Shown here: positions 1,207 through 61,088 of the stretch, one piece after another | How positions within the stretch are numbered: position 1 is the first letter of the stretch | Layout: each line of letters opens with the position of its first letter | Source: a virus | Reading direction: 5' to 3' (one strand) | DNA length: 64,000 nt | IMG/VR virus record: IMGVR_UViG_3300028563_000012 | Coordinates: 38,535-102,534 of that record | Made by a program: the position numbers and the translations under genes | Notes under the pieces: model-generated | Told to the model about the DNA's origin: nothing | Databases searched by the model: none | What the model saw: only the letters and a program-made list of their open reading frames with translations

Positions 1207-3471
1207 TCAAATGGATAGGCGTTTCACGTTCATGTTGAAGCCTTCGGCTGACATGAAGATGATGTCCCCGCTAACAGCATTCAGCTGGCTGAAGGTGAAG
1301 TTTGCTGGGATGAATGTTCTTTTCCTGAAGTGCATGTTGATTCTGGTTTGCGTTGACATGCCAATCGCGCCATCTCTTGCAAATGTGCCAACGATGTAGT
1401 TGGCGCTGTCGTATTGGCTTGCGACATTGCAAGCGAAAACAGGCACCAGACGCGGGTTGGTGTCGCACGGGATGTAATGAGCATCCAACTCCATCATGGT
1501 CGACGGGGCAGGCGCGCCAACCATTGGGATGACTTCTGGCGAGCCTGAAACTGTGTCCGCGGTGTGGCAAAAGCCACTCGTGCCGTATATTGACACACCA
1601 CCACCAAATTTTTGCGCATTGCAAGAATAAACCCAATCACCCTCAATGATGCAGCTGCGGTAGGAAAGCGTGGCTGCCGCCCGATACCCAATCCCGATGT
1701 ACAGCGTTGCTGCTCTTGGAATGGTGTTGCCGCCGCTGTCAGTGATGTCGTTTACGGCGCGGCCGCGTGATGGCGCGACGCTGCAAGCAACGACTTTCAA
1801 TGGGGCTGAGTTGGCTCTGTATGGCGTTGCGTACGCGTTTGCGAGTTGGCAGTGTCTTCCTCCGCAAAGGTAGATGTAGAATGGCACATCAGTCCCGGCG
1901 GGGGTGCCAGGTTGCAACGTCGATGAGATCTCTGCCGTGATCCCTTGGTCATTTGGAAAGTATTCAATGCGCTCGCCATCAATCAACGGGATGTGCTCGA
2001 CTCCAGCAGGCAACTTGATTACGGAATCCGTGGCGCTATTGACAAGCGACCAAACAGGCGTGCAGCCTGTCAGAATGCCGTGGAAGCTGCTGAATGGACC
2101 TTCGATCCTGCGATGGAGCAAGCGCACAAATCCAAAATCATAGGCAGTGGTGCCGCCGCCTGGAGGGACGGTGACTGCAAACAGCCCGATCTTGTTGCTT
2201 GGAACGGTTGGCAGAACAGGGGCACCGCTCGCTGTTCCGGTGATGATTGACAACGTGCACAAAGTTCCGGGCATGGCGGCAGCATTGACTGCCACAATGT
2301 CGTAACGCGTGTTCATAGCATCCGCAGCAGCGTGGAGCAAAGTGGCGGCAGCCCATGCTATTTCGCTGAAATCAGACATTCCAGGGCCCGTGCCACCAAT
2401 TGGCGCATTTGCACTTCCAGCGTCGTAAATGACATGCAATCCAGTTCCTGCTGTTGCACCTGGGACCTTCTGCAAAGCGGGTATTGGGGTCGAATCTCCG
2501 GCCATTCCTGAGATGATGGATCCATTCGCATCCAAAATATTGGAACGCTTGCCGCTATCACGCATGAAATTGTGCGTGTACGATTCAACCAGAGCAGCCT
2601 GGTCTGCGATCCCGTAAGGGGCCACTGATTGGCCGATGTTGTCGATGTTTCCGGTGGGGATGGGAGTGCTGGCGCTCACAGACAAAACATGCCCCAAGAA
2701 CAAGATGCCAGAGCCTCCAAGCAACGGATGGACTGCGTGATCTGTGACCAACGGGCCCATGAGCATGACTTGGTAGTCTGAGGCCGTAGTTGACGGAACG
2801 GTTTGACCACACCCGTTGGCGATGGTGACATAGTTACCGCCGCCATCATGGGCAATGGTGCCAATTTGGAACGCATTCTCAACCAAGACGCCACGGACAG
2901 CACCGGGACCGCCATCGGATGTCGACTTCAGCCAAACTCGAACACTGCGACCTGAATGGTCATCAGCGGAGGCCATCATGAATGCCGTGTTGACGTACAT
3001 CTTGATCGATGTTCCGGCAGCAGTTACGCTGTCAGGATTGGCCAAATAACCCAACAACTCTATGTAGTTGGTGTACTCAGCATCGCCTGTTCGTGGGTTG
3101 GTCTCGATGCCGTTGTCCACTTCTACTTGGGTTGTTGCAATGTCATACGTCTTCGTGCCTGGTGGGATTGGGACGTTTTGCAAGTCGGAGTGAGAACGAT
3201 CACCAGCCGGACCGGAAAGCAATGACTGGATGATTCTGCCCAAGCCATCAGTGCCAATGAAATCATCGACGGCTGCGATGTTGACATGGTTGTTTCCAGT
3301 CGGAACGATGCCGCCGTTGGTCAGATTCACAAACAAGCAGCTACGATTCCACAACCTTTTGGTCGCTGCTCTTTGCGATCCGATCAGGTAGTCCAAAATC
3401 CCCTGCTTCAAGGTGTCAAGCGGCAGGATCTTCTTGTTGTAGATTCTCGCATATTGATCAGTGGTTGGCAT
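1207..3471 (-). CDS. Tail fibre / baseplate-associated protein
   Basis: 754 aa, G/T/A/P-rich; last gene after the baseplate wedge genes. Confidence 0.6.
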   Translation of the reverse strand: MPTTDQYARIYNKKILPLDTLKQGILDYLIGSQRAATKRLWNRSCLFVNLTNGGIVPTGNNHVNIAAVDDFIGTDGLGRIIQSLLSGPAGDRSHSDLQNVPIPPGTKTYDIATTQVEVDNGIETNPRTGDAEYTNYIELLGYLANPDSVTAAGTSIKMYVNTAFMMASADDHSGRSVRVWLKSTSDGGPGAVRGVLVENAFQIGTIAHDGGGNYVTIANGCGQTVPSTTASDYQVMLMGPLVTDHAVHPLLGGSGILFLGHVLSVSASTPIPTGNIDNIGQSVAPYGIADQAALVESYTHNFMRDSGKRSNILDANGSIISGMAGDSTPIPALQKVPGATAGTGLHVIYDAGSANAPIGGTGPGMSDFSEIAWAAATLLHAAADAMNTRYDIVAVNAAAMPGTLCTLSIITGTASGAPVLPTVPSNKIGLFAVTVPPGGGTTAYDFGFVRLLHRRIEGPFSSFHGILTGCTPVWSLVNSATDSVIKLPAGVEHIPLIDGERIEYFPNDQGITAEISSTLQPGTPAGTDVPFYIYLCGGRHCQLANAYATPYRANSAPLKVVACSVAPSRGRAVNDITDSGGNTIPRAATLYIGIGYRAAATLSYRSCIIEGDWVYSCNAQKFGGGVSIYGTSGFCHTADTVSGSPEVIPMVGAPAPSTMMELDAHYIPCDTNPRLVPVFACNVASQYDSANYIVGTFARDGAIGMSTQTRINMHFRKRTFIPANFTFSQLNAVSGDIIFMSAEGFNMNVKRLSI

Positions 3472-4778: not shown

Positions 4779-6980
4779 TCATTTTGCCGTTGTCGTGATG
4801 TTGATGGTGACGGATCCCAGCACAGGCAACTCGCGCGGGCTGAGCAAGACGTTGGACGCCGGGGATGTCAAGATCATGTCAGTCGGCCTTGGGATGCTCT
4901 CCATGATGATGTCGGTCAACTTGGCAGTTGCCACCTTGCTGCCAAACGACCAAAGCCAATTGCCGTCCGGATCCTTGGCCAACGGGTGCAAGAAGCCAGC
5001 CAACGCTGTTAGCACCGCAGACGTTTCGCCATTCTCCACAGTCACAACAACATCAATCGTGCGGGGCACAAAGTTGGTGGCATAAACCTTGTTGTTGAAC
5101 ACGCAGTTCATCTTGGTCTTGGTGCGGGCGTTGAACTGCGTGTCCAAATCATCCAAAACACCAGACACCACAGGATCGCCACCGGTGCCCACCACTACAA
5201 CTTCAAGCGTCTTTGGGCCAAACGACTCCTCAACAGCAATCGAACGAGCAACAGGCCGAGAACCGTCTGCGGCCACGTAGGCAGTTGCCAAGTATTCAGC
5301 ATCAACAGCGGTCACCACGCGCTCATTGGAACGTAAGGCAATGGGAGCAGCAGCCTTCAAACGCATCAAGTCTGCGTCAGTGGATCCTTCCATGTTCGAC
5401 CAACCAGATGCTGCTCTTGGGTTGGTTACGGTGGCAAACCAAGCAATTCCGGACATGTTGACTGTGACCGTGTTGGCGCCCACGTTCCCATCTTGATCCG
5501 CGACCAATGTACGGTACAAGGAGCGTATGCTGTCCGTGCCAACATCGGGCACCTTGCCGTTGTTCCCGTCTCCAAAGTAGATGTCGCAAATGCCATCATC
5601 GTCAAACGCTTTGGTGTAGTGTTTGTCGGTTGGTGTGCTATTCAGAAAGTTGGGCACATTGACCCACGTCGATTCGATGCCGCCCTCAGTCACCAAAATG
5701 GACAAAATGCTGTCATCTATGACAGGGAAATTGGACAACTGGAAGTGTTGATTTGGCGTGCCATCGCTGGAACCCAACGGATCATCTTCGTACGATTTGC
5801 CTTGGGTAGCCGTGAACATCTGGTATTGGTTCCCGTCACTGATGGATGCGCTGCCAAATGTGAAAGTTGGCGTCCCATCGGTCGATACCACCCGCCAACG
5901 CATCCAATGCATGTTGTCACCACCGGCTGGCATCCCGATCGTGGTGCGAGTCCAACCTGCCGTGACAGACCAAGGAAGGTTGAGCGCGACATCAACCGGA
6001 TCCGCGCTGGCGGTCGACAGCCCGTTGGTGCCATCAGCCGTTATGGATAGAGCGCGCCATGCACTACCAACTGTGTAGTCATTGGTGGAAAGCGATGGCT
6101 GGGCTTGGCCTAGCAACGCGGTCAACCCGGACGTTGAAGCGATGTTGATTCCACCTTGATACGTTGATGTCACGTCTTGGAAAGCGCCGGTCAGGTTGCA
6201 ACGCACGCGAACAATCGCGCCTGCCATATTTGTGGAACCTAGGATGGTGGTCAAGTCGAACACCAGCGCTGCTGCTCCGGAAACTTGCTGGAGTGTCACG
6301 CCCTTTGGGACACTTTGATCCAAGTTGCCATCGTAGTATTCCCAAACACCCGCCATCACACCAGCGGTACGGGCACTGAGGATGATGCGCAACAAATCCC
6401 ACATCACACCAGTGTGCCCAAAATATATGGCATTATTTGCCGATGTTGTAGTCCAAGGCGTCCAAGGGTTGTTTGCCAAGACATCAGCTGTGTGATCTGT
6501 GAAATTCGAGCCGTTCCAAGATGCCACCATGCCAACCTGATCAGTCCGCGCGGTGATCACATCTGCCAAGACTTCGTATTCAACAGACGGATTCCCACGA
6601 GCAGCCATGGTGGAGAACCTTGACCCATTCGGAACCGTCGTGGTTGTGGATTCGAATATCTGGGTCAATTTGCCAAGCACACCAACAGCGGCCGGGGTTG
6701 CCTGTTCTAGTTGCTGGCCAATGGCCGCAAGCAGATCCACGTGGCTGCTCCGCAATTTGGCCGTCGGCAAAAACATCTCGTTGGCAACCATGTCCAACAT
6801 GACCATGTTGTGGTGCCCGGATGCGGCACTGGCACGTGCCAGTTGGATATGTGGTTCAAGCGCATCCTCGTCCGTGAGCTCAGGGCAATTCACCCGCATG
6901 TATGCGATCAAGTCTTCCAGCAGTTCTGGATAAAAATGACTTGAATAATTCAATGATGGGACGTTGACTGTGGTTGCCAT
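4779..6980 (-). CDS. Baseplate J / gp6-like wedge protein
   Basis: NEMFLPTAKLRSS, LGSSDGTPNQHF, FGDGNNGKVP, ERVVTAVDAE motifs. Confidence 0.85.
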   Translation of the reverse strand: MATTVNVPSLNYSSHFYPELLEDLIAYMRVNCPELTDEDALEPHIQLARASAASGHHNMVMLDMVANEMFLPTAKLRSSHVDLLAAIGQQLEQATPAAVGVLGKLTQIFESTTTTVPNGSRFSTMAARGNPSVEYEVLADVITARTDQVGMVASWNGSNFTDHTADVLANNPWTPWTTTSANNAIYFGHTGVMWDLLRIILSARTAGVMAGVWEYYDGNLDQSVPKGVTLQQVSGAAALVFDLTTILGSTNMAGAIVRVRCNLTGAFQDVTSTYQGGINIASTSGLTALLGQAQPSLSTNDYTVGSAWRALSITADGTNGLSTASADPVDVALNLPWSVTAGWTRTTIGMPAGGDNMHWMRWRVVSTDGTPTFTFGSASISDGNQYQMFTATQGKSYEDDPLGSSDGTPNQHFQLSNFPVIDDSILSILVTEGGIESTWVNVPNFLNSTPTDKHYTKAFDDDGICDIYFGDGNNGKVPDVGTDSIRSLYRTLVADQDGNVGANTVTVNMSGIAWFATVTNPRAASGWSNMEGSTDADLMRLKAAAPIALRSNERVVTAVDAEYLATAYVAADGSRPVARSIAVEESFGPKTLEVVVVGTGGDPVVSGVLDDLDTQFNARTKTKMNCVFNNKVYATNFVPRTIDVVVTVENGETSAVLTALAGFLHPLAKDPDGNWLWSFGSKVATAKLTDIIMESIPRPTDMILTSPASNVLLSPRELPVLGSVTINITTTAK

Positions 6981-8079: not shown

Positions 8080-8624
8080 GGCTGTGACTCCCCATAGGTT
8101 GCCCACGGCGATGGCACTTGTGGCAGGTTTGGCCTTGCGCTTTGCAAACGTGGCGGGATCAATTGATATTGGTGAGACGTGATGATGACTTGTTCGTCGA
8201 TGTACCGTCGCAGGAGAGGGATTTGCTTGTCCATAGTGTTGGACACTGCTTTGGTGATTGCGTTCTCAAAGGAGCCAGGCGCCAACCAAAGGAAAAGACC
8301 CAAAAACGAGCCAATCACCGTCGTGCAGATGATGATGGCTGTTTTGAGTTGCTTGTATCCTTTGGCTGCAGGGCATGCGCGTTCATGTTCCAGTATCGCT
8401 ATGTCCATGGCGTCCTTGGAGACGGATGTCGGTGGTGGAGTTATCTGTTGCGCTGCTGCGATTTGATCTGCAGCATCCTTCATGACTTCTGCAGCATTTT
8501 GCAAATTGTCAAGGGTGTCGTCCAGCGCCCGCTGCTTTCCGGTATCAGTGAGTGACTGGACAACACCATTCGCGTCATCATCGCTTTGTTGCGATCTGGA
8601 TGTTTTTGGCTTTTCACCATTCAC
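8076..8624 (-). CDS. Single-pass membrane protein in lysis cassette
   Basis: Coiled-coil N-terminus, HERAC motif, one hydrophobic segment (IIICTTVIGSFLGLFLWL); GTG start inferred from GTGA overlap. Confidence 0.5.
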   Translation of the reverse strand: MNGEKPKTSRSQQSDDDANGVVQSLTDTGKQRALDDTLDNLQNAAEVMKDAADQIAAAQQITPPPTSVSKDAMDIAILEHERACPAAKGYKQLKTAIIICTTVIGSFLGLFLWLAPGSFENAITKAVSNTMDKQIPLLRRYIDEQVIITSHQYQLIPPRLQSARPNLPQVPSPWATYGESQP

Positions 8625-9151
8625 GGGGCGCATGCCACGGTGCCGCATTTTCTGATGCTCACTTGTGTTTTTGCAGCCGCCAAACAGTCCAACTTCATGT
8701 CTACGACTGTTGACGACTTGTTTTTATTGCAAGCTTCCAAACAACTAGTGGCTTCGCGGCATTTTAGGCGTTTGACGTTGTTGCATGCGGCCGTGCACTT
8801 ATCAGCTTGGGCACTTGGGAGCAAGGCGCATTCGACCGTGCCGCACTGCCTAACTTGGTCCACGGTCTGAGCGCTGTTCAAGCACCCAACCTTCAAGTCG
8901 GTCACAGTGCTTCCGTTTTCATCGTTGTACACGAAAGCATGAATGCAGTCGGGATCCGCGCCTTCTGTGCAATGGAGCTTGTATAGCTTGTCGCAGAGCG
9001 CCTGATAGGTGATTGATTGGACGTCCGTCTTTGACGGTGCGTCGGATGTCACGGCAGCATCCGGAAGTGGGAACGGCGTTGGGGGCATTGGATGCGGGCA
9101 GGCCGTGAAAAGCAACGCCATGCCGAGCGCTATGATTGCAGGTTTCAACAT
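8621..9151 (-). CDS. Cys-rich lipoprotein with two internal repeats
   Basis: Lipobox LFTA-C; two repeats each ending CGTVxC. Confidence 0.65.
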   Translation of the reverse strand: MLKPAIIALGMALLFTACPHPMPPTPFPLPDAAVTSDAPSKTDVQSITYQALCDKLYKLHCTEGADPDCIHAFVYNDENGSTVTDLKVGCLNSAQTVDQVRQCGTVECALLPSAQADKCTAACNNVKRLKCREATSCLEACNKNKSSTVVDMKLDCLAAAKTQVSIRKCGTVACAP

Positions 9152-45293: not shown

Positions 45294-45521
45294 TTACTCA
45301 ATGGCACAAAGTTCTTGAGTCGAAGTCAGCTCATCACAGAAAATCGGACGTGTGGCCCGCTTGTTCTCGATTTGGTAGTTGTCGTTCACGGCAGGCGCGC
45401 CGTCGAAGCAACCACCGACGCGCGTCTCAACCGTGAAGCCGTCCTCACAAAACGCAGCGGCATAGCAGCCGTCAACGATTGGAAGTTCTTGTGTGATTCG
45501 GTTGGGGTTGGAAGCGCGCAT
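45294..45521 (-). CDS. Hypothetical protein, first gene after repeat copy 1
   Basis: ATG lies at the end of the repeat; no SD. Confidence 0.5.
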   Translation of the reverse strand: MRASNPNRITQELPIVDGCYAAAFCEDGFTVETRVGGCFDGAPAVNDNYQIENKRATRPIFCDELTSTQELCAIE

Positions 45522-45739
45522 GATGTAGAGACTCTTATGCGAGAATCAGGCCGAAATGGTGAAATGGGATTTATGGCACTTAGCATGGCAATAATGCTAT
45601 CAGCTACGAAAACTTTACGTGGTGGAAGGCGCATGCTAGTTGGCAAGAATGCCAAAATGCCTTACCTTCCACCACAATCGGTCAAGCGCCGTAAAACGTC
45701 GCCATCTCATCCAAAGCGACGAAAAACGGCGCCATCAAA
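45519..45739 (-). repeat. Structured intergenic repeat, copy 1 (hairpins + putative promoter)
   Basis: Near-identical to 51457-51677 and 57414-57622 apart from a 61-nt central segment. Confidence 0.95.
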
Positions 45740-50094: not shown

Positions 50095-51459
50095 TCAGTT
50101 GTGGGTTGGGACCAGGATCCCGTTGTCAGCCAGGGCGTGGGTCGCATGATTCGACGCACAAGTGTTGACCTTTGTGTTGAATAACTTGACAAATTCAGTT
50201 GTTGTGTTGTATGGCCACATCCAAGCGGGCAGGATGCCGCCCGGAAGGGCGGCTTTAGCAATGCAACCATTGCTTGGCACCGAGGCCAGCGCTTGATTGA
50301 CGTTGGAAACAAATTCACTTGTGTCAGCAATCGGCCAATTGTAACGCGTACTTGACGCATTGACTTGCAATGCTGTGAATGCGCCCGCTGCCAGGATGGC
50401 CGCAACCAGCTTGGTCGACTTTGCGAGCGCCGGAACTGTCAGCGATAGCACAACCAGAAGATACATGGAATTCTCAACATTGTAACGGCCGGCGGCTGAG
50501 AATTCGATGCCATTGGCCGCACGGCGCAACGCCACCATCGTCACCCCCGCCGTGAAAAATGCAACATAACCCGCCCAAACGGCAACAGTCTTACGATTCA
50601 AAGCACGGAAGCAAAACACCCCGGACAAGGCCGCTAAGACAACAACAAGTGCCCAAAAATTGGGAAGCATGTTGGCGGCATGGAGAGAAGCGCGCAGGCC
50701 GACCATTGGCAAAAGCGTCCCGTCAACGAGCGTGAATCGCAAAAACATCCAAATCTGGCCCATGCTCACAGCTGAGGCTTGCGGGGTTTGCATGGTTGCT
50801 AGGATGGCCGCAGCCAAAATCCCAAACGCAGCAACCCAGCGCATACTAGAAACGACCACGAAGATCGACTTGCGGGTGTTGAGCGTCCACAGGATCGGAG
50901 CAAACAAACAAGGGGTAATCAGCGCGCGGCCCGAAAACATGATGGCGATGAAGAACGCAAGCCCTGCAACAGCACGCCCGTTACGCGTTGGGCCGCTATT
51001 GCCAAGCGGGCCCACCAAGCAAACCAAGCACACCAAGGAAAATAACACCGACAGCGAGATATGGCAAGTTGATGACCACCACAGCTGGGAGTGTAACATC
51101 TGAAGCGATGATGCTTGGATCAGCGTGAACCCGAAGGTGCGCAAAGCTGATTGCCCGGCACGGCGCAGCAACACCCAAAAAATCGCGGTGGTGGCCAAGG
51201 CGAAAACTCCGGTGATGGCCGCGTACACGTGAATTGACATGCCGCCGATGTGAAATGCGCTCCATTGGAGAAGACGGAACGCCGGGACGAATTGCCCGAA
51301 GACAGGCATGGTGAGATACTGCCAAGTCAACCCAAGCTTTTGGACTTGTTCGAAGTTCAAAAAATCATCATATGCGAACGTCAAGCGTGCAAGACGGACG
51401 CACAACATCGCGGCGTGCGCCGCCAGTGCCAAGATGAACAATTTGCGTGAAGCCTTCAT
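50095..51459 (-). CDS. Polytopic membrane protein, GT-C-like glycosyltransferase candidate
   Basis: About 11 TM segments; YDDF after TM1, GQFVPAFRL, GRY; first gene after repeat copy 2. Confidence 0.55.
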   Translation of the reverse strand: MKASRKLFILALAAHAAMLCVRLARLTFAYDDFLNFEQVQKLGLTWQYLTMPVFGQFVPAFRLLQWSAFHIGGMSIHVYAAITGVFALATTAIFWVLLRRAGQSALRTFGFTLIQASSLQMLHSQLWWSSTCHISLSVLFSLVCLVCLVGPLGNSGPTRNGRAVAGLAFFIAIMFSGRALITPCLFAPILWTLNTRKSIFVVVSSMRWVAAFGILAAAILATMQTPQASAVSMGQIWMFLRFTLVDGTLLPMVGLRASLHAANMLPNFWALVVVLAALSGVFCFRALNRKTVAVWAGYVAFFTAGVTMVALRRAANGIEFSAAGRYNVENSMYLLVVLSLTVPALAKSTKLVAAILAAGAFTALQVNASSTRYNWPIADTSEFVSNVNQALASVPSNGCIAKAALPGGILPAWMWPYNTTTEFVKLFNTKVNTCASNHATHALADNGILVPTHN

Positions 51460-51677
51460 GATGTAGAGACTCTTATGCGAGAATCAGGCCGAAATGGTGA
51501 AATGGGATTTATGGCACTTAGCATGGCAATAATGCTATCAGCTACGAAAACTTTACGTGGCTGTTTGCCATCAGTGTTGGCAAAGATGCGCTTCGCGCAT
51601 GAAATGCCAAAGGAATTGGCAAAGCGCCGTAAAACGTCGCCATCTCGCTGAAAGCGACGAAAAACGGCGCCATCAAA
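51457..51677 (-). repeat. Structured intergenic repeat, copy 2
   Basis: See copy 1. Confidence 0.95.
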
Positions 51678-56465: not shown

Positions 56466-56722
56466 TAATTCATGAGCGCCGATGGGATGCGAATCACGGT
56501 CTGGCCCGTGGCGATGACGCGCACTTCCCGATATACCATGGCAAGTTGCTTCGTGCCATCAATGACCTTGAGATGCGTCGCAGCTGCTGCGTGGCGGAAT
56601 AGGCGTCCACACGGTTGTACTTCGATGAAAATCATTGCCCGGTTGCCTGCGGCCTTGGCAATCGCGTCCAGTGAAATGTGCCCAATGGTTGTGTGGTTGT
56701 CGTCTTGGAATTCAGCAATCAT
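56453..56722 (-). CDS. Hypothetical protein
   Basis: ORF in operon. Confidence 0.45.
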   Translation of the reverse strand: MIAEFQDDNHTTIGHISLDAIAKAAGNRAMIFIEVQPCGRLFRHAAAATHLKVIDGTKQLAMVYREVRVIATGQTVIRIPSALMNYWKG

Positions 56723-56730
56723 GCCGTAGG

Positions 56731-56928
56731 TTAGTTTGAGGCGCCACGAAGCGCTTTGATCACAATCTCAGCTTGGGTCATCATCAAGTTGCCGTTTCCA
56801 ACAAGATCCACAAGCATTTCGAACACTCTGCGACGCCCTGCAGCATGAAGTGCCTTGACAACTTCGGGCGACAACGTGTTCATTGGGATGACTTGGAACT
56901 TGGTCATTGGCGGTGTTGTGATTTTCAT
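56731..56928 (-). CDS. Hypothetical protein
   Basis: ATGA coupling. Confidence 0.45.
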   Translation of the reverse strand: MKITTPPMTKFQVIPMNTLSPEVVKALHAAGRRRVFEMLVDLVGNGNLMMTQAEIVIKALRGASN

Positions 56929-57233
56929 GATTGCGCGATCCTCAAGGTTTGCTCGATGGCGTCAAGCTCGGCTGACGTGTGGCGACTCGACAAAGCCGCC
57001 GTACGGACCAAACAACCCTCCTTGACACTGCCGGACATCGTGCTGTCAGCGCCAAACTCCGCATAGAAACAAGCAAAAAGCTTGCCATTGATATCTTCTT
57101 TGCGCGCTGAGATGCTGGTCACCTTTGCCCAGTTTCCGAATGCGTCAAGAACCAAGCCGCCGATCTCCAACTTTTCAATGTAGTCGCGACTCGGGATGAA
57201 ATAGACTTGGCCGTGAACCAATCCGTGCGCCAT
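56925..57233 (-). CDS. Hypothetical protein
   Basis: GGAGG RBS before MAHGLV. Confidence 0.5.
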   Translation of the reverse strand: MAHGLVHGQVYFIPSRDYIEKLEIGGLVLDAFGNWAKVTSISARKEDINGKLFACFYAEFGADSTMSGSVKEGCLVRTAALSSRHTSAELDAIEQTLRIAQS

Positions 57234-57235
57234 GA

Positions 57236-57415
57236 TTAAGCCTCCACCGCGGCGAGATTGACGAGCGTGCGTGAGCGATCCGACTTCGATACGAAGCTGA
57301 AACACACATCATCTTGGTCGGCGATGTAGGACTGAACCGCAGCTTCCAGCTCACTGGAATCGCGGATGGTTGGGATCTCGTGAAGTGTGATGGCCGTGTT
57401 TCGTCGCGTTGTCAT
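57236..57415 (-). CDS. 59-aa leaderless ORF after repeat copy 3
   Basis: MTTRRNTAITLHEIP...AAVEA; below the ORF-track cutoff. Confidence 0.5.
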   Translation of the reverse strand: MTTRRNTAITLHEIPTIRDSSELEAAVQSYIADQDDVCFSFVSKSDRSRTLVNLAAVEA

Positions 57416-57622
57416 GTAGAGACTCTTATGCGAGAATCAGGCCGAAATGGTGAAATGGGAATTCACACACTTAGCATGGCAATAATGCTATCAGCTACGA
57501 AAACTTTACGTGGCTGTTTGCCATCAGTGTTGGCAAAGATGCGCTTCGCGCATGAAATGCCAAAGGAATTGGCAAAGCGCCGTAAAACGTCGCCATCTCA
57601 TCCAAAGCGACGAAAAACGGCG
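57414..57622 (-). repeat. Structured intergenic repeat, copy 3
   Basis: See copy 1. Confidence 0.95.
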
Positions 57623-57623
57623 G

Positions 57624-57875
57624 TCAAGGATTGGTGGCTTCGATTTGCTCACGCAACTTGAGGATCCGGTCGAAGCAATCGGGGCAGACGCCCATGGTGC
57701 AAACTGAATCCTTGTACGATGTGAAGCAAATCGTGCAGTCATGCACAGCCCAACGGTTGTACCTGTCCTCGCACGTACTCTGAAATGCCCGGATGAGGCC
57801 TGAGAGCAAATCGCGGTCGATGACCAATGGTTGTTGCTTTACTGCTTCGGGCCTCGGGCTGTCGTCGGTGCACAT
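57624..57875 (-). CDS. Small Cys-rich protein
   Basis: AAAGGA RBS within the 28-bp direct repeat; CTIC...CPDC. Confidence 0.5.
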   Translation of the reverse strand: MCTDDSPRPEAVKQQPLVIDRDLLSGLIRAFQSTCEDRYNRWAVHDCTICFTSYKDSVCTMGVCPDCFDRILKLREQIEATNP

Positions 57876-58394
57876 GCTTCGAATCCTTTGGTTGCCTATC
57901 CGGTTGACGCCCATTTGGCAGGATTTGTACCGTATCGCAGTAAATATGCTCGACAAGCAGGGCAACACCATGATGGATCATCTGGAGAGTTCACACGACA
58001 GGGTCTTCCCGATCCGTTCCTACTGCATGGTGTATCGGCCAACCATTCAATGAAATCAACTGCCTGTTCAGGTTGACAAAGCAATCGCTGAAAGCCAATT
58101 CGGCCTAGTGTTTTACCCTTTTTCCGAGCCCAAGAATCCATAGCATCGGCGCAGGTTTGTGCCTCCTCCACCTTGGTCGAAATTTCACCCGACAGCGCTC
58201 GGTACCGAGCCCACAAGCGCACAAGTGATCCTGCCAAAGGATCACGTCCTAACAGGACGAACATAGGCTCGTCTGGACACGCTTCATGATAGCAATCGAA
58301 TTTTCCAGGATTGTTCCTAGTTCCCATCTTTCCCTCTCAATTCACTTGGGGTTGTCAACCGGATAGACATGCTTCGAATCCTTTGGTTGCCTAT
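57872..58394. mobile_element. Single-gene insertion bounded by a 28-bp direct repeat and a 13-bp inverted repeat
   Basis: DR ACATGCTTCGAATCCTTTGGTTGCCTAT at 57872-57899 and 58367-58394; IR CTATCCGGTTGAC at 57896-57908 and 58354-58366. Confidence 0.6.
57896..58327 (-). CDS. Phage hypothetical protein (NNPGxFDCY...DEPMFVLL-type)
   Basis: MGTRNNPGKFDCY..ACPDEPMFVLLGRDP; GAGGG RBS. Confidence 0.6.
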   Translation of the reverse strand: MGTRNNPGKFDCYHEACPDEPMFVLLGRDPLAGSLVRLWARYRALSGEISTKVEEAQTCADAMDSWARKKGKTLGRIGFQRLLCQPEQAVDFIEWLADTPCSRNGSGRPCRVNSPDDPSWCCPACRAYLLRYGTNPAKWASTG

Positions 58395-58729
58395 TACGTA
58401 ACGCTTGCAGGCATCGGGAATGGCGCGTTGATGACTTCGTTTGGATGCGGTATCAATACACCAGTGTGGCGATAGATGCGCATCCTCCAATGGAGGAATG
58501 TCTCATTGGACACTGCTGGATTGCGCACGTCGCTGTGCACGTTCCCTTGACCGTTTTTCCATGTGGCTTCAGCAAACCTGAACTTGCTAGTGTACAAACC
58601 CATGGCACCAATGCCGCCATCAACCGTCACGTGGAATGCATACTTCACACCGGAGTCGGAATTGACCATGACTTGGGAGTCGGCTTTGCCCGATTTCGGC
58701 TTGTCTACCAATTTGAATTTGTCACCCAT
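58394..58729 (-). CDS. Hypothetical protein
   Basis: ORF in operon. Confidence 0.5.
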   Translation of the reverse strand: MGDKFKLVDKPKSGKADSQVMVNSDSGVKYAFHVTVDGGIGAMGLYTSKFRFAEATWKNGQGNVHSDVRNPAVSNETFLHWRMRIYRHTGVLIPHPNEVINAPFPMPASVT

Positions 58730-58749
58730 GATGGGTTATTTGGCAAATG

Positions 58750-59106
58750 TCATTTGGACTTGTCGGCGCGCTTGTCCCAAAGTGGGCTCCATCCGCCCTT
58801 GCAGATGTAACGCACCGTTGTCTCGCTTAGGTTTGACGCGTTAGAAAGCTGCTGTATGGTCGCCTTCAGCTTGCGCAAGCGCATGATCATTTTGGCTTTT
58901 GCTCGGGTGACTTCGCCATACACCTTTGGCCTGCGCTTGCCCGACGCAGCTTGCCACGTGATGCCGTGGACAACGCACCACACCCGGCCGGTGTCCAGCC
59001 CCATCTCTTGCGCGATTTCCGGGATGGTCTTACCCGTGGCTGCCAAGCCAAGGATCTTCTCAGCGACACGCAGACCAATGTGCTTGGATCCTGACACTTC
59101 CGGCAT
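58750..59106 (-). CDS. Tandem-HTH DNA-binding protein (paralog 2)
   Basis: IPEIAQEMGLDTGRVW; LSETTVRYICKGGWSPLW. Confidence 0.65.
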   Translation of the reverse strand: MPEVSGSKHIGLRVAEKILGLAATGKTIPEIAQEMGLDTGRVWCVVHGITWQAASGKRRPKVYGEVTRAKAKMIMRLRKLKATIQQLSNASNLSETTVRYICKGGWSPLWDKRADKSK

Positions 59107-59118
59107 GGGCTCTCCAAT

Positions 59119-59232
59119 TCAAATTCGACGGTGATTCAACATGAACGCGCACAGGAGTAACACGGCGGCCGCGGCGACGATGCCTGCAGCAAGATCCCGA
59201 ATCGGGGTTGAGGCGAGGATGGTTTGTGGCAT
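59119..59232 (-). CDS. 37-aa membrane peptide
   Basis: Hand translation: MPQTILASTPIRDLAAGIVAAAAVLLLCAFMLNHRRI. Confidence 0.35.
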   Translation of the reverse strand: MPQTILASTPIRDLAAGIVAAAAVLLLCAFMLNHRRI

Positions 59233-59235
59233 GCC

Positions 59236-59784
59236 TTATTCTATGCGCTGGCCATCACTCGAAATACCTCTCACGGCAATCAACTCTGCGTCAGAGCGCA
59301 GCATCAGCGGGTGACGCGGCATTCCGGCTGTTGTCGTTCCGAGGCACCACAGCTTGCCCGGCTTGGTGTCGCGCCGGACGCTCTGAACAGCGCACCCCAT
59401 CCACCGTCGGACGTTCGCGCCCCATGCCAAGATCATCTTGTCCGACAACCTCAACGACAACCTGTATGCAATCTCGTTCGCTGCGCTGAGCAAGACATCC
59501 TCACCGGAAATCGCTGCCAGCTCCAAGTCGCGCGGATCCGTCGCCCTCCATGGTGACAAGTTGGTGACGATGATGCCGCTGGCGCCCTCACGAGCAGCAA
59601 AGCCAAAACATCGGCGAATTGTCGGATCTGACACGGTTGCGTCGGCCTTGGACGGGTTGCTCATATGAAAGCCCAATGGTTGGCCGTAATCAAACAACGA
59701 GCGCCAGAGCAGCAAGCGGTAGCGCCCGCATGGCGAGATGACCGCGCCATTAGGTGTCCGCAGTTGTTCCCACCAAGGCGCCAT
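59236..59784 (-). CDS. DUF1643 family protein
   Basis: SPCGRYR..LWR, NPSKAD..DPTIRRC, RATDP, AWG, PRHPL. Confidence 0.8.
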   Translation of the reverse strand: MAPWWEQLRTPNGAVISPCGRYRLLLWRSLFDYGQPLGFHMSNPSKADATVSDPTIRRCFGFAAREGASGIIVTNLSPWRATDPRDLELAAISGEDVLLSAANEIAYRLSLRLSDKMILAWGANVRRWMGCAVQSVRRDTKPGKLWCLGTTTAGMPRHPLMLRSDAELIAVRGISSDGQRIE

Positions 59785-60332
59785 CAGACCTTGATTGCCC
59801 GCAATTCGGGCGGCACGATCTTGGGCACCGTTTGACGTTTCACGGGGTGGCGGTAGGCCGCCATGGTCGGCACAAGACTGGTGATCTCGGGCCAAGCCTT
59901 CAACAAGCTCTCATAGGTCCGGAAACCTTCCAACGTGTCTTTCACAACTTTCTTGAAGTCACGTTGCTTCAAATTCATCGCACGTTGCTTCCGGGACAAT
60001 GCCTTGATTGCCTTGCGAAGCGGAGGATCCACGATCGTGATCTCTTCCATGTAAGCCGGAATGCGATGTGGCTCTTTGAAATGCACCCTGATCCCATCAC
60101 CGTTGGTGAACCTGACGTATATGCCGTCAACTTCAAGCAGCCAATTTGGCGGGATGTTTGCGAGCAGATGTTCGCCCGCGCTGCCACCAGGGGTGAGATT
60201 TGACTTGACGATGCGGTGCGCTAGACCGTCTGACACTTTATCGATTGCCGCACGCTCGTTCGCAAACTTGGCCGAGACGATCTTGCCCACCAACTCGAAT
60301 CTGCTGAACTTATTGATCTGCGTTCCCATCAT
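59784..60332 (-). CDS. Nmad5-like protein
   Basis: C-terminal TLEGFRTYESLLKAWPE pattern. Confidence 0.5.
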   Translation of the reverse strand: MMGTQINKFSRFELVGKIVSAKFANERAAIDKVSDGLAHRIVKSNLTPGGSAGEHLLANIPPNWLLEVDGIYVRFTNGDGIRVHFKEPHRIPAYMEEITIVDPPLRKAIKALSRKQRAMNLKQRDFKKVVKDTLEGFRTYESLLKAWPEITSLVPTMAAYRHPVKRQTVPKIVPPELRAIKV

Positions 60333-60603
60333 GTCTCCTTTTCGGCTTGTCCCAATCTGGCTTGAAGTCATCAGGTATCAGGATTGCGAAGGCATCATAG
60401 GCTCGGGTGCGCCATTGCCTGAACGTCTCGCTTGGCACCGTGCCCACCGCCATGAAGCTGTTGGCCTCGTATGATGGCGCGAAGATCTCACCTGATAGCT
60501 GGCACAACCTGCCAACCGTAACACCATTGGAATCGTGGATGTAGAGTTTGCCGTTGGTGTTCTTCTCAACCGTGAAGCCACCAATTTTCTTTGACCTTGC
60601 CAT
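60310..60603 (-). CDS. Hypothetical protein
   Basis: ORF in operon; ETFRQWRTR resembles ETFDAWRDR in 60816-61088. Confidence 0.5.
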   Translation of the reverse strand: MARSKKIGGFTVEKNTNGKLYIHDSNGVTVGRLCQLSGEIFAPSYEANSFMAVGTVPSETFRQWRTRAYDAFAILIPDDFKPDWDKPKRRHDGNADQ

Positions 60604-60815: not shown

Positions 60816-61088
60816 TCATGCCTTGCCAGGCTTGTGCTTGGCACCAACCACAAATCCAAACTCGGCCTTCACCCGATCCCGCCAAGCATCGAACGTCTCA
60901 CCGGCCATGGTGATGAACGAGTGACGCCCCTTGGAATTACCAAGACTGATGGCCACTTGTCCTTCTGCCTTGCTCCAAGCAGCGATGCTTTGGCCTGCCG
61001 AGTTGTAGATGTATGTGCTTCGGACGCATTTGACGATTGTGTGTTTCATGGTTCTTTCTTTGACGGTGGTGCGGTGTTTGTTGATCAA
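60816..61088 (-). CDS. Hypothetical protein
   Basis: ORF in operon. Confidence 0.45.
   Translation of the reverse strand: MINKHRTTVKERTMKHTIVKCVRSTYIYNSAGQSIAAWSKAEGQVAISLGNSKGRHSFITMAGETFDAWRDRVKAEFGFVVGAKHKPGKA

Follow-up and report, generated by a model that had tools for sequence, protein, structure and literature searches.

MIC231 of Bacillus cereus is a mobile insertion cassette (MIC) derived from IS231. Among phages, the mycobacteriophage elements MPME1 and MPME2, which Sampson et al. are said to have described in 2009, reportedly measure ~440 bp and have short inverted repeats and one small open reading frame (ORF); we know of no link between these elements and a known transposase family, and of no regular target duplication around them. 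The IS1595 family of insertion sequences is defined by 8-bp target-site duplications (TSDs), an N-terminal zinc finger and a C-terminal DDE domain (PMC8101967). Members of this family that carry passenger genes are known as 'transporter IS' (Siguier, Gagnevin and Chandler 2009, cited in PMC8496243). The qnrD and qnrS2 mic elements are described as mobile insertion cassettes in two reports (PMC3913671, PMC5444012). MITEs have been surveyed as non-coding elements and were found in only 0.01% of viral sequences; according to the same survey, phages seldom carry IS elements or MITEs (PMC11602168).

Here we analyse a 481-bp unit in a phage genome. With a probability of about 0.8 we regard it as a mobile insertion cassette with an aberrant right junction, a non-autonomous element with one gene, derived from the IS1595 family. 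The DNA analysed (the window, 64,000 nt) runs from 38535 to 102534 in an IMG/VR virus record of 102,534 bp, which CheckV rates complete and which is present in rhizosphere metagenome runs. Like IS1595 elements, the unit has the ends of elements encoding Zn_ribbon_IS1595/DDE_Tnp_IS1595 proteins, with a passenger between them, and an 8-bp duplication is found in 64 of its relatives; unlike them and the transporter IS, the window copy has no transposase, an altered right tip and a flanking repeat of 28 bp, not 8. It resembles the MICs in having IS ends around a gene not concerned with transposition, no transposase and a presumed mobilization in trans, but its parent family is IS1595 rather than IS4/IS231, its replicon is a lytic-type phage genome, and it has its own leader and ribosome-binding site (RBS) and gives its passenger the last codons and stop. 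With MITEs it shares a short, non-autonomous build, terminal inverted repeats with TSDs and an occurrence in both hosts and phages, whereas the window element and 44 other viral relatives, in contrast to the surveyed MITEs, carry an ORF. MPME1/2 are likewise small phage elements with short inverted repeats and a single small ORF, but the family of the window element has a clear autonomous parent and 8-bp TSDs. The window element belongs to a kind already known, the mobile insertion cassettes, here from the IS1595 family, and does not represent a new integration mechanism.

All genes around the cassette lie on the minus strand. In gene direction, a 111-aa gene is followed by the first repeat copy, the left inverted repeat, a 26-nt leader with an RBS, the 143-aa passenger gene, the right inverted repeat, the second repeat copy and an 83-aa gene (Table 1). 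The direct repeat, inverted repeats and 143-aa gene recorded in the first-pass annotation of this DNA were all confirmed: the 28-nt direct repeat ACATGCTTCGAATCCTTTGGTTGCCTAT, with 495 nt from start to start, and the 13-nt inverted repeat CTATCCGGTTGAC, which extends to 16 nt at 94%, are both perfect. Searching the window with up to 3 mismatches allowed gave no further copy of the 28-nt repeat, and none of 100 shuffled controls gave any match; the genome (102,534 bp), searched with up to 1 mismatch allowed, has the 13-nt inverted repeat at this locus alone. The earlier reading of the locus, one gene inserted together with terminal inverted repeats and without its own transposase, was correct. 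The 28-nt repeat contains AAAGGA, 8 nt and ATG, and the ATG of the 83-aa gene lies in its second copy, bearing out the view that the duplicated RBS and start codon keep the downstream gene intact. The passenger's TAG stop lies inside both the right inverted repeat, which had been named as its supplier, and the 28-nt repeat, and excision of one 495-bp unit leaves the clean stop-RBS-ATG junction that had been foreseen. The 17-codon ORF crosses the left end and shares 11 nt with the start of the cargo gene. An integron attC reading was rejected by eye, the core GTTGAC not fitting GTTRRRY. A tRNA T-loop look-alike within the repeat, TTCGAATCC, was also rejected; it is stemless and negative in ARAGORN.

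Table 1. Positions of the cassette, its parts and its neighbours in the window, in gene direction; the segments of the repeat copies follow the 7+8+8+5 parse given in the text.
Feature	Position	Strand	Remarks
Upstream phage gene, 111 aa, ORFan	58394..58729	-	TAA stop overlaps the 28-nt repeat
28-nt direct repeat, upstream copy	58367..58394	-	
Upstream copy: native flank ATAGGCA	58394..58388	-	
Upstream copy: ACCAAAGG	58387..58380	-	
Upstream copy: target copy ATTCGAAG	58379..58372	-	
Upstream copy: left-end tip CATGT	58371..58367	-	
Whole cassette, 481 bp	57891..58371	-	Similarity to family members runs from 58371 to 57893/57891 (blastn, alignments)
Left-end terminal inverted repeat CATGTCTATCCGGTTGAC	58354..58371	-	Family consensus CATGCYTATCCGGTTGAC; T, not C, at position 5
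13-nt inverted repeat, left arm	58354..58366	-	
17-codon orphan ORF	58317..58370	-	Opened by the duplicated RBS and ATG (read from the sequence)
Conserved leader with own RBS (AACCCCAAGTGAATTGAGAGGGAAAG)	58328..58353	-	Directly ahead of the cargo ATG
Passenger gene, 143 aa	57896..58327	-	Sole ORF inside the cassette
Right-end terminal inverted repeat GTCAACCGGATAGGCAAC	57891..57908	-	Family tip ...GGCATG reads ...GGCAAC here; terminal TG gone
13-nt inverted repeat, right arm	57896..57908	+	
28-nt direct repeat, downstream copy	57872..57899	-	
Downstream copy: right-end tail ATAGGCA	57899..57893	-	
Downstream copy: putatively copied flank ACCAAAGG	57892..57885	-	
Downstream copy: ATTCGAAG	57884..57877	-	
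Downstream copy: native CATGT with start codon of the 83-aa gene	57875..57873 (start codon)	-	
Downstream phage gene, 83 aa, Cys-rich, ORFan	57624..57875	-	RBS and ATG from the second repeat copy

The only match of the 111-aa protein among 5.8 billion proteins is itself, as is the only protein-database match of the 83-aa protein, and no relatives of either flanking gene were found in any collection searched. Each flanking gene is present on 16 contigs and the cargo on 12. Single-protein queries of IMG/VR with the cargo and with each flanking protein returned no close relatives, no GenBank phage DNA resembles positions 56500-59900, and tRNA and Rfam searches around the insertion site gave nothing. 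The idea of a PeSL-like regulatory cassette was also followed up; no repeated junction motif was found at other gene starts of the operon. The surrounding region holds further features. An ETFxxWRxR motif is common to small minus-strand ORFans at 58394-58729, 60310-60603 and 60816-61088, and the first of these, the 111-aa gene, has a weak paralogue in the second (BLASTP E = 5e-6); these ORFans look like a paralogous family in the small-gene region of the phage. A DUF1643 protein (PHROG 3230) is encoded at 59236-59895, ~1 kb upstream of the cassette, with a neighbouring gene for an HTH protein at 58750-59106. Three intergenic repeats of ~210 bp, ~90% identical and with an exchangeable middle segment, lie at 57414-57622, 45519-45739 and 51457-51677 and have no tRNA or Rfam match. 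In four rhizosphere runs the contig depth of the copy beside the cassette is 3-7x that of its flanks, and the loose ends of this repeat enter several unrelated sequences, indicating that the element is also present in other genomes.

To place the ends, IMG/VR was scanned with the repeat arm plus three bases and then with two mismatches allowed. The initial scan gave about twenty unrelated contigs in which the repeat arm lies inside a longer common motif, and the two-mismatch scan found this motif in inverted pairs around short segments, with an exact 8-bp direct repeat outside each. The family terminal inverted repeat is 18 nt long, CATGC[C/T]TATCCGGTTGAC ... GTCAACCGGATA[G/A]GCATG, with the paired ends CATGCYTATCCGGTTGAC ... 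GTCAACCGGATARGCATG. Among the matches listed, the exact 18-mer occurs in more than 120 viral contigs (IMG/VR) and more than 120 GTDB genome contigs, which span many bacterial phyla and often have it at contig ends, as expected for repeated IS copies. All the loci retrieved together gave 95 inverted pairs, non-redundant and 131-2563 bp long; in 64 of them a perfect target duplication of 8 bp lies just outside the tips, with the symmetrised target logo T-N-[G-W-W-N-N-W-W-C]-N-A. The first-pass annotation had postulated an unexplained gene-capture mechanism; the ends are instead those of this very common IS1595-family insertion sequence with its 8-bp duplications.

Zn_ribbon_IS1595 and DDE_Tnp_IS1595 domains were identified in proteins of the larger elements (Pfam E from 1e-29 to 1e-32), and the transposase was confirmed by tblastn (E down to 1e-153). 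It is present in 16 bacterial copies of 980-1190 bp, with fragments in 2 shorter bacterial pairs, and in 8 viral copies of 1.5-2.6 kb, most of which have space for extra ORFs; in L100 and L122, ends like those in the window flank IS1595 transposase ORFs. Bacterial genomes also hold 131-250-bp non-coding, MITE-like copies of the same family. A search for the inverted repeat around other cargo genes, which had been proposed as a check, succeeded: dozens of single-gene viral cassettes share the ends. Besides the window element, 44 viral pairs of 235-1284 bp carry a single unrelated ORF and no transposase (tblastn), such as a methyltransferase-like ORF with an NPPY motif seen by eye and no Pfam match, or a nucleoside deoxyribosyltransferase-like protein whose Pfam matches fall under the gathering cut-offs.

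TnpB is carried by 4 viral pairs. This protein (OrfB_IS605 plus a Cas12f1-like TNB domain) stands alone between IS1595-type ends in L147 (9803-10938), L246 (4200-5335), L264 (5316-6454) and L153 (1171-2600), and none of the four has a clean 8-bp duplication. Elsewhere, family elements lie close together: the 194-kb IMG/VR contig L130 has at least 4 family cassettes or ends in 14 kb (including 5310-5700 and 8551-8837), and the 8-bp duplication of one cassette abuts the tip of the next element, which suggests insertion beside resident ends; L270 and L372 follow the same pattern. In L251 (7632-8915), the target duplication of a 1,284-bp cassette with a 397-aa cargo is TTGCCTAT, identical to the inner part of the family left tip, and this cassette may have been inserted into the end of another copy.

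Alignment of the window element with ten relatives gave the right-end consensus (T)AATGGGCGTCAACCGGATAGGCATG, and the window matches the family consensus at 17 of 18 positions at the left end and 16 of 18 at the right. At the left end the tip CATG and the core are invariant across 10 aligned elements, and the leader is near-identical in L234, L268 and L130, with 93% identity to L234 over the 43 nt of left end and leader (blastn). All ten comparison elements (10/10) finish their right ends with GGCATG, and GGCAAC is found in the window alone.

The passenger has a helical N-terminal domain of ~70 aa that is common in phage proteins, with about 200 phage homologues, and a Cys-rich C-terminal half. 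It has no Pfam or PHROG match, it falls in virus-only hypothetical clusters of the ESM Atlas (score 0.78), and its AlphaFold2 model (pLDDT 74) gave no Foldseek match at E ≤ 0.001 in the PDB or BFVD. Its final residues and stop (STG, then stop) are encoded by the right-end core, and the W and A codons before them fall within a conserved subterminal stretch of the right end. The closest full-length homologue, in L003, is 76% identical in amino acids, lacks transposon ends and extends further at its C-terminus. In nucleotides the window is homologous to L003 over exactly 58335..57909, beginning just ahead of the start codon and stopping immediately before the right-end core. These bounds show that a resident phage gene was captured between leader and right end, the transposon donating the last residues and the stop codon of the passenger. 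The C-terminus is also shared by P0003, P0004 and the cargo of L099, consistent with capture. A 122-kb metagenome contig of 64% GC, L004, holds a 5'-truncated copy of the cargo at 64% amino acid identity, whose last 24 nt are identical to the window and which finishes in a canonical right-end tip. Among the 57 loci with homologues of the N-terminal domain, L004 is the only one that carries the ends (1/57), which indicates that the passenger family is normally a fixed phage gene. The L004 copy (2502-3272) is fused behind a 168-aa ORF, a decayed cassette with its canonical right end intact.

The 28-bp repeat can be parsed as ATAGGCA + ACCAAAGG + ATTCGAAG + CATGT (7+8+8+5). It had been taken for a 24-28-bp target duplication, a reading that did not hold: the repeat is not the product of a single staggered cut but combines the tail of the right end, an 8-nt flank, an 8-bp TSD and a look-alike of the left-end tip. 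The window copy alone among the pairs has a long flanking repeat, and this repeat overlaps both tips. The 8-mer ATTCGAAG abuts the left tip and is displaced by 8 nt on the right side, so that the copy has no clean 8-bp TSD. When a target position weight matrix (PWM) built on the 64 validated sites was applied to 77 positions of the reconstructed empty junction, ATTCGAAG scored best with 4.73 bits, compared with a mean of 3.35 for true sites and with 0.9% of genome positions that reach 4; CAAAGGAT, the 8-mer beside the right end, scored -2.40 bits. The 28-mer was not found beside any other element, indicating that it belongs to the phage and not to the transposon; a flank in L074 that appeared similar by eye was rejected on comparison. 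The frequent ...N8-CA... context of family targets accounts for the resemblance of the target's CATGT to the left tip. On the basis of the PWM result, the unique GGCAAC tip and the phage origin of the 28-mer, we take the left junction to be probably canonical and the right one not.

An IS1595-family DDE transposase, supplied in trans by the host or by a co-infecting element, would recognise both ends of such a unit and insert it with an 8-bp duplication; autonomous copies with the same 18-mer are present in many bacterial phyla among the matches listed. The entry site would have been ATTCGAAG, which in the stop-RBS-ATG junction separates the RBS of the 83-aa gene from its ATG. A 7-nt microhomology, ATAGGCA, located 8 nt upstream of ATTCGAAG, may then have served to join the right end to the flank, so that a copy of the RBS-bearing ACCAAAGG would have replaced the terminal TG. 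The process could have taken one step, an aberrant one-ended transposition, or two, in which a canonical insertion was followed by recombination or short-patch repair with the left junction or an empty allele as template; the left junction offers homology of 13 nt on one side and 7 nt on the other. Together with the copied segments, a target CATGT that mimics the left tip would give 7+8+8+5 = 28 identical bases. The present junction restores AAAGGA-N8-ATG for the 83-aa gene, whereas a canonical insertion at ATTCGAAG would split the RBS from the ATG. The weak point of this account of the right junction is that it needs ATAGGCA to occur by chance in the native flank, at ~0.2-0.4% for a 7-mer in ~30 nt of a window that was itself chosen for looking unusual; the tandem stops TAATAG of the 111-aa gene supply part of this heptamer. 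The tip of the right end that the transposase needs for cutting has been removed, so this copy is probably fixed in place and no longer mobile.

The reconstructed empty site is stop-ATAGGCAACCAAAGGATTCGAAGCATG-gene, with a junction that would read ...GTTACGTAATAGGCAACCAAAGGATTCGAAGCATGTGCACC...; a canonical insertion allele would read ...GGATAGGCATG+ATTCGAAG+CATGTGC..., and a circle junction would consist of the right end, 16 nt and the left end. The search for an empty site or circle junction proposed earlier came back negative: contigs from four of the 22 rhizosphere runs, in which rare variants would be dropped, show the occupied allele only, with no empty site, circle junction or canonical allele. 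An exact scan of IMG/VR, from which near-identical records may be missing, with the start region of the 83-aa gene for empty or canonical alleles gave 0 matches, and no second full copy of this cassette was found. With neither an empty site, a canonical allele nor a second copy, we infer the movement of this copy from its family.

Other histories of the junction were weighed against the IS1595 cassette with an aberrant right end. The transposase could have made an abnormally long staggered insertion of full 18-nt ends (CATGT...GGCAAC), with a duplication of 14 bp, CAAAGGATTCGAAG, or of 24-28 bp. The perfect 14-nt repeat does abut both 18-nt ends, and there are precedents, as the related element IS1 occasionally makes duplications of more than 9 bp and some IS4-family members make very long ones; yet the repeat runs 9 nt into the right end and 5 nt into the left, which a pure target duplication cannot explain, the duplication is exactly 8 bp in 64/95 family pairs, the AC tip is unique among the right ends examined, and the 8-mer beside it is a poor target by the PWM. 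The last two points led us to reject the 14-bp TSD parse, and we judge a long stagger to be quite unlikely. A circular cassette (right end, about 16 nt, left end) that recombined into a pre-existing identical 28 bp, by homologous recombination or a phage recombinase and with loop-out possible, is also very unlikely in our estimation. One crossover within 28 bp would yield exactly repeat, element and repeat, and 28 bp is within the reach of phage single-strand-annealing recombinases. However, such a history gives no reason for the phage to have carried beforehand the very sequence of a transposon circle junction; in the four runs with the locus, neither reads nor contigs join across an empty site or a circle; and the 28-mer was not seen beside any other element.

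The long flanking repeat, and the 13-24-13 palindromic arrangement that the ends form side by side, had suggested site-specific att-core recombination or Cas1/casposase-type integration, distinct from DDE transposition. Neither likeness survived analysis, and we consider such integration highly implausible: searches of the complete phage genome found no IS1595 transposase, Cas1, tyrosine integrase or serine recombinase, nor any Phage_integrase or Resolvase domain, while positive controls worked (the Cas_Cas1 search was positive in 7 of 14 reference genomes). The suggestion to look for a recombinase or Cas1 elsewhere in the genome was thereby answered in the negative. The ends belong to IS1595-family elements that encode DDE transposases, the supposed attP-like circle junction is merely two transposon ends side by side, the repeat overlaps the transposon tips, which speaks against a casposon, and the 28-mer, as a would-be att core, occurs at this locus alone. 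To our knowledge, moreover, a 24-bp spacer between the arms fits no tyrosine-recombinase core site. It is scarcely credible that a one-off replication template switch duplicated the junction and trapped the gene, leaving the inverted repeat as an incidental feature. The element does occur as a single copy in this genome, and a template switch also forms part of the preferred account of the right junction, but the inverted repeat, leader and right end are common to dozens of independent elements with 8-bp duplications, and these elements and their transposase-bearing relatives refute template switching as the complete explanation.

A different significance would attach to the 28-bp junction if it were the footprint of a second entry route, in which phage recombination captures a circular or concatemeric intermediate of the cassette at short homologies near a start codon. 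We think this unlikely. Were it so, no transposase would be needed for cassettes to pass from phage to phage, selection would favour those that rebuild the downstream translation signals, and IS1595-type cassettes with a leader and RBS would amount to a largely undescribed system of accessory-gene exchange among environmental phages.

For the assignment to a mobile insertion cassette of the IS1595 family, the consequences are these. The suggestion of a novel integration chemistry falls away, the ends being those of an ordinary DDE transposon family. The comparison with L003 shows the point at which a resident phage gene was captured between the transposon leader and the right end, and the window copy would illustrate how a cassette becomes fixed, one tip having been destroyed by a junction that also restored expression of the neighbouring gene. 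Although IS elements and MITEs are described as rare in phages, one 18-nt end brackets dozens of different single-gene cassettes in contigs of uncultured phages, a concrete route for the shuffling of accessory genes.
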